Assembly (NCBI RefSeq): GCF_003334355.1
Contig: NZ_QOWP01000003.1
Direction: 5' to 3' (one strand)
Source: Escherichia coli
GTDB taxonomy: Bacteria; Pseudomonadota; Gammaproteobacteria; Enterobacterales; Enterobacteriaceae
Length of the DNA stretch: 64,000 nucleotides
A model generated the notes under the pieces. That model made no database searches, was not told where the DNA came from, and worked only from the letters and a program-made list of their open reading frames with translations. Position numbers and translations under genes: made by a program. How positions within the stretch are numbered: position 1 is the first letter of the stretch; the number at the start of each line of letters is the position of its first letter. Below, one piece after another: positions 39,064 to 42,167 of this stretch.

Positions 39064-39942
39064 TTACGCCAAATTTACAGAGAAGATTTCCTCGAGCATT
39101 GCCCCCGCCAGACGCTGCGCTGAACAGAGTCGTGGCATCCCCAGCGCGACAGTTTGCCAGCGTTGGGTCACTGACCAGCAAACGGGTTGTTTATCTGCCG
39201 TGGTCCACTTTCCCAGCCAACTTAAAAAATCAGCATGCTCCCCGCCCGTCGGAACGGTCGAAGAGGCAAACCACTGATGGTAATAGTGACGCGTGGTCGG
39301 TGCCGCATTGATACTCTCTGCCAGATGTTGTGTCGCTTTCTCGAGCAAATCACCCAGCAACAACGCCACCGCTTGCGGGCTTCCCAGACGGCAGGCATCG
39401 CCAAATGCCCCCCAGCGCAACTCCTCCAGAACGATAAAACAGCGCCCAGGCAACGACCAGGCGTTATACGCCCCAGCACGCCAGCGGGTAAAAATTTGCT
39501 CGCTCTGATCACCTGCCTGCACCAGTAGGCCTCGTTGCGTTAACGCCTTTTCCTTCCAGCGACAACGGGCTGAAAACCACTCATACAAGGCGGCAATTTG
39601 CTGGGGGAGCTCCGGGAAAGCAGAGTGCTGGCGGTGATCCATTTTTTGCAGCAGCGCCAGATGCTGCGCGATCTGCGTCAGTGCCAGATGACCGGGATCC
39701 AGCATCGACGCCAGTTTTTCCACCAATGTCAGACGCAGGCTAAGCGGCGCATTTAACATGCCGCCGTTCGTCCATGTCTGAAGCTGCACACGCGAAAGAA
39801 GTTCCTGCATCAGTCGTTCACGAAACTGCTGCTGATGGGCTTGTGGAAGGCGGGCATCATCACCCTGCGCCAGATCCACTAAAAAGCGGGGATAAACCGA
39901 CTCCAGCACGCGACCGGGGCCGTCAAGTAACGTCTTTGTCAA
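39064..39942 (-). CDS. yjcZ: YjcZ, uncharacterised protein co-encoded with CrfC
   Basis: ORF track 292 aa; recognised as YjcZ; the track start codon is TTG (39940-39942), which overlaps the crfC stop (TATTGACA). Confidence 0.85.
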   Translation of the reverse strand: MTKTLLDGPGRVLESVYPRFLVDLAQGDDARLPQAHQQQFRERLMQELLSRVQLQTWTNGGMLNAPLSLRLTLVEKLASMLDPGHLALTQIAQHLALLQKMDHRQHSAFPELPQQIAALYEWFSARCRWKEKALTQRGLLVQAGDQSEQIFTRWRAGAYNAWSLPGRCFIVLEELRWGAFGDACRLGSPQAVALLLGDLLEKATQHLAESINAAPTTRHYYHQWFASSTVPTGGEHADFLSWLGKWTTADKQPVCWSVTQRWQTVALGMPRLCSAQRLAGAMLEEIFSVNLA

Positions 39943-42167
39943 TATCGTTCTGCCGTGAAAAGTGTTTGAATATCATCGCGTAACAGCTGGGCGTCGGTGT
40001 AAATCCAGCCGTGAGTCATCACAGTCTGCTGCAATTGCTGCTGCATCAGCCTGACCACCGATTCATTTTGTTGACGCAGAGCCAGACTTTCGCGTAAACG
40101 CGTCTGTAATTCCGTCAAACATGAAGCGAACTCAGCGAAAAAAGTATTCATGCCTGCCGTAACAGATTCATCGACCTGCTCTGCCAGAACTTTAGCCATT
40201 TGTTGGCAATAGAGATCGACTTCTGCGCTTAATGCTCGTTGCAACACACTGTAATCAACCGTTTCTGTCGGTGATTTCTCATTTCCCCGTCCCCAGTCGG
40301 GCTGATTCAACCAGCGCGAAAAAGTCTCACGCACAACGCCTAAACGCGTGCTCTGCTCGTCCGTTGCTTCCTGGCGCGAAATGACTTCACTGAACAGCTG
40401 GCGAGTGTTGAAGTGGGGAACTACGCCGTGAAAAACAGGAAAATGAAACCCAGGACGAAACCCTGACTCGCTCAATTCCATTTTGACTTGTTGCTCAATG
40501 GGGCGAATAACATCGGTTAACACCCGGCAAAGGGTGGATTCCAGCTCGGCAAAACGCAGCGTAAAGTCGCGACTGATGGTGTTCTGCGCCGTCTGTAACA
40601 GTGTCTCACAGCGGGTACGAATCTCGCTTAACGGCTCCGAATCATCCTGAAACAAGGCGGCTAACTGCGCATTCAGCGCATCTTGTTGTTGACGCAGAAA
40701 GTGGTTGGCGGAGGTCAGGGCCAGCTCGATTTCATGTTTAATCTCGCCGCTCACCTGCGCCTGATTGAGTTGCAATAGCTGCAAACTTTCTTCGACCTGA
40801 TGGATATTTTGCCGCAATTGTTCACAAGCGACGTTTAACCCGTGCGCACGAAAATCCAGGTATTCCCGCGCCTGCTGCGCGTAATTCAACAGTTTATGCG
40901 CAGCAGATCGCAGAGCATACAACGAGGCGTTAGCGTAAGCGGCATGAAGCAACGCCTGAATTGGCTGGGCGAACAGCGAATCTTCCCACAACTGATCGGC
41001 AGCATGACGAATATGTTCGAGGTCCGCCAGATCGTCATGACGCCAGCGCCTGCCGAGCGCGGCATGGGCAAAATCTTCCACCCAGCGTTGTTGCTCTGGC
41101 GCTGGTAACTTACCGTTGTTGGCTAACTCATAGCGCGCCCGATTCGCCAGGTAGCCCCACATCGACGACACCGGAAATATCTGCTGTGGCGTAATACAGC
41201 CTTTCATCAGCGTCCCGGAAATCAGTGCCCGCACCTGGTCGGCGTCGTCACTGTTACGATCCTGTTGATCGAACTTATTGACCAGCACATACAGCGGCAC
41301 CGATTGCCCCACCGCCAAAATCGCCTCACGGACCTCTTCATCGGAGATCGATTTCAGTTGCGTATAATCCAGCACCGCCAGTACCGCCGAGGCGCGTGCC
41401 AGCTGCTGGTTAAGCATTTTTTGCAGATGCGGTTGCCCGGCTTCATTTGGCCCGGGGGTATCCAGTAACGTCAACTGACCGGGATAACTCTCCAGCCCCG
41501 CCAGATGGACAAACTCCACTTCAATCACGGGAATATGCTCAATGGCGGCGTAAGCAGAAAAAGGAAAATCGACGTCCAGCGCCTTCGCCAGTCGCACTAA
41601 ATCATTCAAACTTTTCAGACAATGAAAAATAGGCTGGGCACCCAGATAATATTTTTCGAAAGCGACGCCATTTTCGATCCGCTGCATAAGCGCACGCATA
41701 TCTTTATCTATTTCCAGCACATCGGTCAGATGCTTAATATCGCAATCACGCAGGCGCTGTTGTAATTGTTGAATTAAACAATCGATTGGCGCGACATGTG
41801 AAAAATGCAGTACCGGTTCCTTTTGCCCGGGCGTATGGCGAATAAGCGTTGGCAGCGCAGTCATAGGGCGATTGCGATTAGGCAGAACCTCCGTACCAAC
41901 AATGGCATTAATGGTGGTTGATTTCCCTGCTTTCATAGTACCGACAATCGCCAGCACCATTTCCAGTTGGGAAATTTTACGCAACTCATTATTCAGCATC
42001 GCGTGACGCTCGGCGATATTAGGCTGACTCCAGGGTAAAGCCAGTTGTGGCGCATCATCTCCGGGTACAGAGAGAGGCATTTTTTCCAGTAACTGCAACT
42101 GTTGGCGAGAAAGCTGTAACAGGCGTTCAGCCTCCTGACTTAACTCATACAGGGTCTGTGTGTACAT
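39939..42167 (-). CDS. crfC: CrfC (YjdA), bacterial dynamin-like GTPase
   Basis: ORF track 742 aa; N-terminal GTPase P-loop GTMKAGKST and dynamin-like G-domain, long helical C-terminal region; recognised as CrfC/YjdA. Confidence 0.92.
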   Translation of the reverse strand: MYTQTLYELSQEAERLLQLSRQQLQLLEKMPLSVPGDDAPQLALPWSQPNIAERHAMLNNELRKISQLEMVLAIVGTMKAGKSTTINAIVGTEVLPNRNRPMTALPTLIRHTPGQKEPVLHFSHVAPIDCLIQQLQQRLRDCDIKHLTDVLEIDKDMRALMQRIENGVAFEKYYLGAQPIFHCLKSLNDLVRLAKALDVDFPFSAYAAIEHIPVIEVEFVHLAGLESYPGQLTLLDTPGPNEAGQPHLQKMLNQQLARASAVLAVLDYTQLKSISDEEVREAILAVGQSVPLYVLVNKFDQQDRNSDDADQVRALISGTLMKGCITPQQIFPVSSMWGYLANRARYELANNGKLPAPEQQRWVEDFAHAALGRRWRHDDLADLEHIRHAADQLWEDSLFAQPIQALLHAAYANASLYALRSAAHKLLNYAQQAREYLDFRAHGLNVACEQLRQNIHQVEESLQLLQLNQAQVSGEIKHEIELALTSANHFLRQQQDALNAQLAALFQDDSEPLSEIRTRCETLLQTAQNTISRDFTLRFAELESTLCRVLTDVIRPIEQQVKMELSESGFRPGFHFPVFHGVVPHFNTRQLFSEVISRQEATDEQSTRLGVVRETFSRWLNQPDWGRGNEKSPTETVDYSVLQRALSAEVDLYCQQMAKVLAEQVDESVTAGMNTFFAEFASCLTELQTRLRESLALRQQNESVVRLMQQQLQQTVMTHGWIYTDAQLLRDDIQTLFTAERY

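Follow-up and report, generated by a model that had tools for sequence, protein, structure and literature searches.

The rdcA-rdcB (crfC-yjcZ) operon of Escherichia coli: a conserved overlapping junction, an internal FliA promoter and a patatin-linked mobile sister module

Two overlapping genes of Escherichia coli, known as yjdA (also crfC and rdcA) and yjcZ (also rdcB), lie on the reverse strand of a chromosomal stretch of 64,000 nucleotides (nt) (contig NZ_QOWP01000003.1; the whole stretch is hereafter called the window), and the closest described system is the one formed by these same two genes. In 2019, Pfiffer, Sarenko, Possling and Hengge renamed YjdA and YjcZ as RdcA and RdcB and reported that activation of the diguanylate cyclase DgcE, via its MASE1 domain, requires both proteins (PMC6510439). 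Knockouts of rdcA, rdcB and dgcE had identical, non-additive phenotypes for macrocolony matrix, CsgD, csgB::lacZ expression and cyclic di-GMP (c-di-GMP), while bacterial two-hybrid assays indicated that RdcA self-associates, binds RdcB and binds the DgcE MASE1 domain (PMC6510439). Since the K82A variant of RdcA was active and the T103D variant inactive, with DgcE activation abolished and DgcE binding lost, GTP was taken to act as an inhibitor, and the biochemical role of RdcB, as a GTPase-activating protein or as a release factor, was left open (PMC6510439). Independently, a transposon screen published in 2026 and based on sorting by Förster resonance energy transfer found rdcA, rdcB and dgcE enriched among low-c-di-GMP mutants (PMC13031359). 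A reading of the window made from the sequence alone (the sequence-only reading) had called the function of YjcZ unresolved; it has in fact been described since 2019 as that of a DgcE co-activator acting with RdcA, and the 2026 screen agrees.

The stretch is E. coli chromosome and its region 38900-42700 is 100% identical to the RefSeq-annotated strain PSS-12, in which two coding sequences with identical ends are named crfC and rdcB; of 5426 complete E. coli genomes, 5400 (>99%) contain at least 80% of this region. The rdcA coding sequence (39939..42167, reverse strand) is a 742-codon open reading frame (ORF) with its ATG at 42167 and its stop codon TGA at 39941-39939, and the rdcB coding sequence (39064..39942, reverse strand) is a 292-codon ORF running from a TTG at 39942-39940 to a TAA at 39066-39064. 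RdcA scores 1594.6 bits against the NCBIfam equivalog NF007368, 'clamp-binding protein CrfC' (cut-off 1146), and its residues 72-277 match Pfam Dynamin_N, whereas RdcB is a full-length member of the Pfam family YjcZ (PF13990; residues 21-287, E 1e-143) with no matching NCBIfam model. The G1 motif or P-loop, GTMKAGKST, is encoded at 41916..41942 (reverse strand; residues 76-84, including K82) and is invariant across all aligned RdcA homologues, as is the catalytic G2 threonine T103, whose codon lies at 41859..41861 on the same strand. The size of the GTPase, its P-loop and the coordinates of the overlapping stop and start codons, as given in the sequence-only reading, all hold.

With a dynamin-like G domain carrying K82 and T103, and a PF13990 gene directly downstream on the same strand, the locus is the known E. 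coli rdcA(crfC/yjdA)-rdcB(yjcZ) operon. The operon, the interaction of its products, their signalling target and the internal promoter described below have all been published already, and for the window itself the analysis is accordingly of little significance; the dedicated pair with a physical interaction that had been proposed from the sequence is the RdcA-RdcB pair seen by two-hybrid assay (PMC6510439). The dgcE gene itself lies outside the window. What is new is the extent of the pair across genera, an ancestral ATGA junction with a TTG in Escherichia, the conservation of the FliA motif and a patatin-linked sister clade. The residual value lies in evolutionary notes on the TTG and on a clamp-binding motif, in the FliA dependence of rdcA and in a mobile module as a candidate system.

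Taken as a whole, the locus is very probably best explained as the rdcA-rdcB operon for DgcE control, in which rdcB would be reached by reinitiation at an NTGA junction as well as from a second, rdcB-only transcript. In this account, RdcA is a soluble dynamin-like GTPase, and RdcB its dedicated all-alpha partner. By the published genetics and two-hybrid data, RdcA forms dimers or oligomers and binds RdcB, and in its nucleotide-free state, itself expected when cellular GTP drops at the entry into stationary phase, it docks on the MASE1 domain of DgcE. Such docking promotes DgcE activity and hence, through c-di-GMP and CsgD, the production of curli and cellulose, and c-di-GMP from DgcE also brakes the flagellar motor through YcgR.

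Conservation of the pair was analysed on 80 loci, retained from 110 relatives that a scan with a YjcZ alignment recovered from one genome per species. Going by the titles of the records, about 20 named genera are represented, all of them Enterobacteriaceae but one, the exception being an assembly labelled Chryseobacterium; a few metagenome-assembled genomes (MAGs) are labelled only Proteobacteria. A homologue of rdcA (53-93% identity) lies immediately upstream of rdcB in 80 of the 80 loci, and the synteny proposed from the sequence therefore extends well beyond close relatives, all the more so when the distant patatin-linked relatives described below are counted. The overlap itself, TTGA at 39939..39942 on the reverse strand of the window, where the rdcB start TTG overlaps the rdcA stop TGA by 4 nt, is likewise a real and conserved junction: an NTGA overlap occurs at the same codon in 72/80 loci, as ATGA outside Escherichia and as TTGA in all Escherichia loci. 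In the remaining eight, TAA is followed by a gap of 2 nt (Phytobacter, Franconibacter and one Enterobacteriaceae MAG), or the junction is TGATG, or the start is shifted.

Several observations bear on the start codon of rdcB. No in-frame start codon was found 5' of the TTG, and 17 homologues from several genera align from RdcB residue 1, with residues 2-20 conserved (in particular L5, L6, G8, G10, R11, L13, E14, P18 and F20). Within Escherichia, codons 2-11 show synonymous differences only, and the sole nearby alternative start, a GTG at +33, is a GTA in Escherichia sp. E1V33. On these grounds, the TTG is well supported as the true rdcB start. As the homologous start codon is ATG in all other genera, the alignments place the TTG as an Escherichia-specific ATG-to-TTG change of an ancestral ATGA junction.

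As to translation, the duplex between the rdcB Shine-Dalgarno sequence and the anti-Shine-Dalgarno sequence is predicted to be weak at most loci (-1.5 to -2.8 kcal/mol). Upstream of rdcA, the Shine-Dalgarno sequence TAAGGAAG (42176..42183, reverse strand) precedes the ATG, and TAAGGAA or TAAGGGA is kept at this place in most of the 78 scorable homologous loci. Because the Shine-Dalgarno sequence of rdcB is weak in every genus, we infer that, on the long transcript, rdcB would be translated by termination-reinitiation at the conserved NTGA junction, a process with which the junction pattern is consistent. The change from ATG to TTG in Escherichia should then lower rdcB reinitiation.

A second source of rdcB messenger is indicated by a promoter for FliA (sigma-28) located inside rdcA, about 250 nt 5' of the rdcB start, at 40168..40194 on the reverse strand (TAAAGTTC-N11-GTCGATGA). 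Read from 40194 to 40168, this site matches the consensus TAAAGTTT-N11-GCCGATAA at 13 of 16 positions, and only three sites scoring at least 13/16 occur on both strands of the window. It is the same 28-mer as the site listed as '(yjdA)yjcZ' by Fitzgerald et al. (2014; PMC4183435), who found a FliA peak inside yjdA by chromatin immunoprecipitation sequencing (ChIP-seq), with the motif TAAAGTTCTGGCAGAGCAGGTCGATGAA. According to the same study, this site drives yjcZ, whose RNA drops from 52 to 1 when fliA is deleted; the study also calls incorrect a FliA promoter previously predicted upstream of yjdA (PMC4183435). The internal promoter is also backed by a published lacZ fusion, and a peak of RpoF holoenzyme in genomic SELEX (systematic evolution of ligands by exponential enrichment) falls at the same coordinate. 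Among homologous loci, the motif is kept at -252 in 61/81, with a varying spacer. By these data, rdcB alone belongs to the FliA regulon, no FliA site being present upstream of rdcA.

The promoter inside rdcA thus supplies a second transcript that carries rdcB only. Given this separate transcript, the RdcA:RdcB ratio would be adjustable instead of fixed, and linked to the flagellar regulon. The fixed stoichiometric partnership that had been read from the overlap is contradicted by a promoter that transcribes yjcZ alone, as seen by ChIP-seq and RNA sequencing (RNA-seq), lacZ fusion and SELEX: rdcB is expressed independently, although from the start codon that had been predicted. The TTG, as a weakening of a junction that is otherwise universally ATGA, together with the conserved FliA promoter, suggests a regulated RdcA:RdcB ratio, which bears on what RdcB does to RdcA. 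In Escherichia, the internal promoter and the weaker TTG may offset one another. Scans for sigma-70 promoters and terminators revealed nothing distinctive at the locus. No intrinsic-terminator-like site was seen on the reverse strand between the rdcB stop and the proP start (38834-39063), and read-through from rdcB to proP is therefore conceivable.

The strength of the internal promoter (ChIP-seq fold-above-threshold of 19, and the loss of yjcZ RNA mentioned above) raises another account, according to which the 4-nt overlap would be incidental packing and RdcB would be made essentially from the FliA-driven transcript by independent initiation at the TTG, without functional coupling. Such overlaps are common in the neighbourhood: among the same-strand neighbours within 15.8 kb around the locus, three pairs (eptA/basR, crfC/rdcB and phnG/phnH) overlap by 4 nt. 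Moreover, the gene persists in the eight of 80 loci whose overlap has given way to a gap of 2 nt or to some other junction that is not NTGA. A 4-nt overlap is in itself ordinary; its conservation exceeds chance, with the junction at the same codon in nine tenths of the loci and with overlaps (ATGA or GTGA) in the paralogous patatin modules as well. The Shine-Dalgarno sequence, weak everywhere, fits a reliance on upstream ribosomes, and rdcB is retained in the roughly one quarter of loci where the best FliA motif match is weak or lies elsewhere. We consider incidental packing somewhat unlikely and favour reinitiation at the junction combined with a separate rdcB transcript.

Four points weigh against this combined account of DgcE control, reinitiation and a second transcript. 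Firstly, deleting fliA lowers the RNA of yjdA itself from 111 to 11 (2014 RNA-seq, PMC4183435) although no FliA site lies upstream, a drop in the long transcript that the account does not explain. Secondly, on the FliA-driven transcript no full-length rdcA is translated before the TTG, so that rdcB must also be initiated in some other way, perhaps de novo or perhaps by reinitiation behind translation that begins at an in-frame internal rdcA ATG. Thirdly, according to the published data on clamp binding and nucleoid partition by CrfC, DgcE control may not be the only role of the protein. Finally, an AlphaFold2 (AF2) model of an RdcA-(GGGGS)6-RdcB fusion, made with 13 paired rows, reached a predicted local distance difference test (pLDDT) of 76.5 and a predicted template modelling score (pTM) of 0.59 and does not establish the RdcA-RdcB interface.

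The third of these points underlies a different reading of the locus, in which the primary role would lie in chromosome biology: CrfC oligomers would attach to the beta-clamp on nascent DNA, keep sister replication forks together and set the position of nucleoids, with YjcZ as a bystander or an accessory. The beta-clamp-binding motif defined for CrfC, 41-QLALP (PMC6374313), is present in the window (42033..42047, reverse strand), the NCBI family is named 'clamp-binding protein CrfC', and the Q41A change is reported to abolish clamp binding (PMC6374313). Anucleate cells in crfC deletion and Q41A mutants are also recorded (Ozaki 2013 and Taniguchi 2019, as summarised in PMC6374313). The distribution of the motif tells otherwise. 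Residue 41 is a proline in Escherichia sp. E1V33 and E. whittamii (loci L006 and L015), the segment reading PLTLP in the latter, and no QLALP-type motif was found in the 76 RdcA homologues from other genera, where this part is variable; the G domain, the stalk and the RdcB partnership, by contrast, are kept across the whole set. In addition, clamp binding is independent of GTP, the in vivo data derive mostly from plasmid expression and the deletion has no growth defect (PMC6510439), while yjcZ goes unmentioned in the CrfC paper PMC6374313. From the alignments, clamp binding looks like a recent, E. coli-specific addition to an ancient G domain and RdcB partnership. Its most economical reading is lineage-specific moonlighting, the view taken by Pfiffer et al. 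(PMC6510439), with which the QLALP distribution agrees. A primary role in chromosome biology therefore appears distinctly unlikely, and the confinement of QLALP to E. coli, set against the ancient RdcB partnership, supports DgcE control as the ancestral function.

The sequence-only reading had also pointed to membrane repair and phage resistance, roles that are not supported for this locus. The divergent gene yjdM lies upstream at 78 of the 80 loci and proP downstream at 69, across about 20 genera; in the three loci outside Escherichia for which genes were called, kdgT separates rdcB from proP. The arrangement yjdM-rdcA-rdcB-proP is a core-genome housekeeping context and not a defence island. 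With PADLOC, RdcA gave weak partial matches to LeoBC (E 3e-6) and LeoA (E 9e-6), of about 24 bits, and another weak one to mad8; YjcZ gave none. Neither a family-level match to LeoA plus LeoBC nor an accessory or mobile context, by which an Eleos system would be recognised, was found.

That the core pair might itself be a dynamin system for phage defence or membrane repair, like DynA or Eleos, is suggested by the genuine dynamin-like fold of RdcA (Foldseek matches to BDLP, E 3e-10, and to LeoA, E 3e-6), by the weak LeoBC and LeoA matches and by distant paralogues of both genes that accompany patatin phospholipases in mobile or defence contexts. The pair is, however, carried by over 99% of complete E. 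coli genomes, at a fixed yjdM/proP site in about 20 genera and in no accessory island, and it combines a single dynamin with a non-GTPase partner instead of paired dynamins. The PADLOC matches fall well short of family level, and the pair is a member of the flagellar regulon with a signalling target already demonstrated. In the published descriptions, RdcA is a soluble protein devoid of a membrane-binding motif (PMC6510439, PMC6374313), and YjcZ-family proteins remain unmatched in 50,697 phage records. Taken together, a defence or repair role of the core pair is very improbable. As for the suggestion that homologues might sit in defence islands, it fails for the core locus and is borne out only for the distant patatin-linked paralogues, which occur in mobile or defence contexts.

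These paralogues form a module of their own. An exhaustive phmmer search of 1.84 billion representative proteins returned 200 YjcZ relatives, many of them full-length at 22-36% identity. At the loci of the distant relatives, overlapping genes encode a dynamin (ca. 800 residues), a YjcZ-like protein (ca. 300 residues) and a patatin-like phospholipase (ca. 355 residues); the junctions are ATGA or GTGA, and the patatin motifs GGGxK/VG, GASIG and DGG are intact. The module dynamin of Pseudomonas aeruginosa is 34% identical to RdcA over its full length (E 1e-132). Examples of overlapping dynamin - RdcB-like - patatin operons are found at 7531-12051 in locus L091, 12132-16497 in L095 and 6773-10991 in L096. 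In the E. coli locus L091, the module dynamin is split into two ORFs of 496 and 328 codons (7531-10004) and has no gene call; this is probably a pseudogene with a frameshift, next to an intact YjcZ-like gene and an intact patatin gene.

At least 80% of the module is found in 2446 of 5426 complete E. coli genomes (ca. 45%), with up to five matching places per genome. In one strain, it lies in a CP4-44-like island, between a gene for a YeeP-like GTPase and DUF932, antirestriction, yeeS, yeeT, cbeA and cbtA genes. The module is also carried by plasmids of Escherichia, Klebsiella and Enterobacter. The YjcZ-like protein has matches in 44 records of plasmids from Escherichia, Klebsiella, Enterobacter and Citrobacter, of which 16 are conjugative, although some of these appear to be chromosome-sized records or core yjcZ instead of the module; no match to the YjcZ-like protein was obtained among the 50,697 phage records. 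In P. aeruginosa (CP096932.1; L092, 7590-13829), a run directly following recBCD consists of the dynamin, YjcZ-like and patatin genes, a JukA homologue and a WYL regulator. The JukA homologue (PADLOC E 1e-42) follows the patatin module within 3 nt, and a PDC-M26A-like gene and a BrxR-like regulator are found on the other strand. JukA serves as the sensor in the jumbo-phage-killer system and is known to combine with variable effectors. This stretch after recBCD looks like a defence island.

Two metagenomic versions of the module have a NERD/UvrD helicase neighbour matching a PADLOC candidate. One variant (L087, 2352-8973) consists of tandem dynamins (786 and 490 residues), a 261-residue protein with a weak GYF_2 match, a YjcZ-like protein and a patatin, and is preceded by a NERD+UvrD gene that matches the PADLOC candidate C3a187 (E 2e-70). 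The PGAP annotation names the middle gene of the module a 'diguanylate cyclase regulator RdcB family protein', a label carried by hundreds of island- or plasmid-borne genes, which is probably misleading in the patatin-module context. In the paper library searched, no study of the module was found, only an incidental description of an island.

In a neighbour-joining tree of concatenated pairs, the core enterobacterial pairs and one two-gene contig at 33% identity form a patatin-less clade, apart from the patatin clade; being rooted at midpoint only, the tree gives no direction for patatin gain or loss. The module exists as a paralogue of the core pair, with intact catalytic motifs and in mobile and defence contexts. 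More speculatively, YjcZ/RdcB could be a general adaptor coupling RdcA-type dynamins to an output enzyme, the core pair (with DgcE as output) being the patatin-less sister and the mobile module a candidate anti-phage or membrane-attack system. We offer this generalisation tentatively, as an idea more doubtful than probable. Should the module act in defence, it would couple a GTPase switch of the dynamin type to a lipase as effector, and the role of RdcB could then be explained by analogy.

At the structural level, no solved structure was found for RdcA or RdcB among the Protein Data Bank (PDB) sequences: the only match of RdcA was to BDLP residues 66-123, and the YjcZ-family profile returned coiled-coil noise only. 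In Foldseek, the RdcA part of the fusion model matched BDLP (2j69), SynDLP, IniA, Campylobacter dynamin-like proteins (DLPs) and mitofusins besides LeoA, and the model confirms a true bacterial dynamin-like fold for RdcA, with a predicted G domain and helical neck and trunk. RdcB residues 221-270 rose from a pLDDT of 30-46 when folded alone to 61-87 in the fusion, but the alignment also changed between the two. The most conserved stretch of the YjcZ family, WSVTQxWQxVALGMPRLCSA, lies within RdcB 244-271 (window positions ca. 39130-39213, reverse strand), has a pLDDT below 50 when folded alone and is a candidate interaction segment. P253, P270 and R277 are near-invariant in the family, even in relatives at 22% identity, and the invariant core of RdcB comprises W154, E173-G181 and P270-R277.

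Upstream of rdcA, the gap to the divergent yjdM gene (start at 42569) is a 401-nt AT-rich intergenic region (42168..42568; GC 0.24-0.31). The AT-rich leader of about 400 bp read there from the sequence is thus real as an AT-rich gap, but is better described as a divergent intergenic region shared with yjdM than as a leader. No FliA-like site in it reaches 11/16, and Rfam returned no match within 38800-42700. About 70 nt 5' of the rdcA ATG, the block GTAATTATAAAAGCCGAAAA (42231..42250, reverse strand) is conserved across most of ten aligned genera. The stretch CGGCTAAATAAAAGTAAT..AAAATTTGCGTTAAGGAA that follows it, reaching 42176, is also conserved in most of the aligned genera, the region being otherwise divergent and AT-rich. 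A FliA promoter upstream of rdcA was considered and rejected: GCCGAAAA resembles a FliA -10 element but has no matching -35 (9/16), in line with the literature that calls the prediction incorrect.

Concerning protein length, Escherichia RdcA (742 residues) is missing two segments, one of about 8 residues following position 34 and one of about 36 following position 520, that the RdcA of every other genus (770-789 residues) has. An N-terminal extension of the 780-789-residue homologues was rejected as the cause, because the start codon and the Shine-Dalgarno sequence are homologous and internal indels explain the length. Further away, yjdN (43164-43607, forward strand) is an intact ORF of 147 codons here; its counterpart in strain PSS-12, which is otherwise nearly identical, has a nonsense change of one base (position 43468) and is listed as a pseudogene.

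Among known systems, the RdcA/RdcB DgcE system of PMC6510439 is formed by the same genes: the full-length proteins, K82 and T103, the two-gene layout and the flagellar-regulon control match, and nothing differs in kind. The CrfC of the clamp-binding work (Ozaki 2013; Taniguchi 2019; PMC6374313) is likewise the same protein, with 41-QLALP in both, but, of the homologues examined, only the E. coli protein carries the motif, and YjcZ plays no part in that work. Compared with the bacterial dynamin-like proteins (Nostoc BDLP, SynDLP, IniA, Campylobacter DLP1/2, LeoA and DynA), RdcA is alike in its Dynamin_N domain and its long helical neck and trunk (E 1e-10 to 1e-6 with the AF2 model), whereas its sequence similarity beyond the P-loop is negligible, its partner is a non-GTPase helical protein instead of a second dynamin, and the protein is reported to be soluble, with a signalling enzyme as its target and not membrane remodelling. 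Eleos (LeoA/LeoBC) also has a dynamin-family GTPase, to which RdcA is matched only weakly by PADLOC; the present locus has neither a second or third dynamin gene nor a defence-island context, and YjcZ has no counterpart in Eleos. Finally, the patatin module shares with the core pair the gene order, the overlapping junction and a PF13990 protein with the common core AGRCYxALEELRWGxFGD, but adds a third overlapping gene for a patatin-like phospholipase, is carried by integrative islands, plasmids and the P. aeruginosa defence island, and forms a separate clade.

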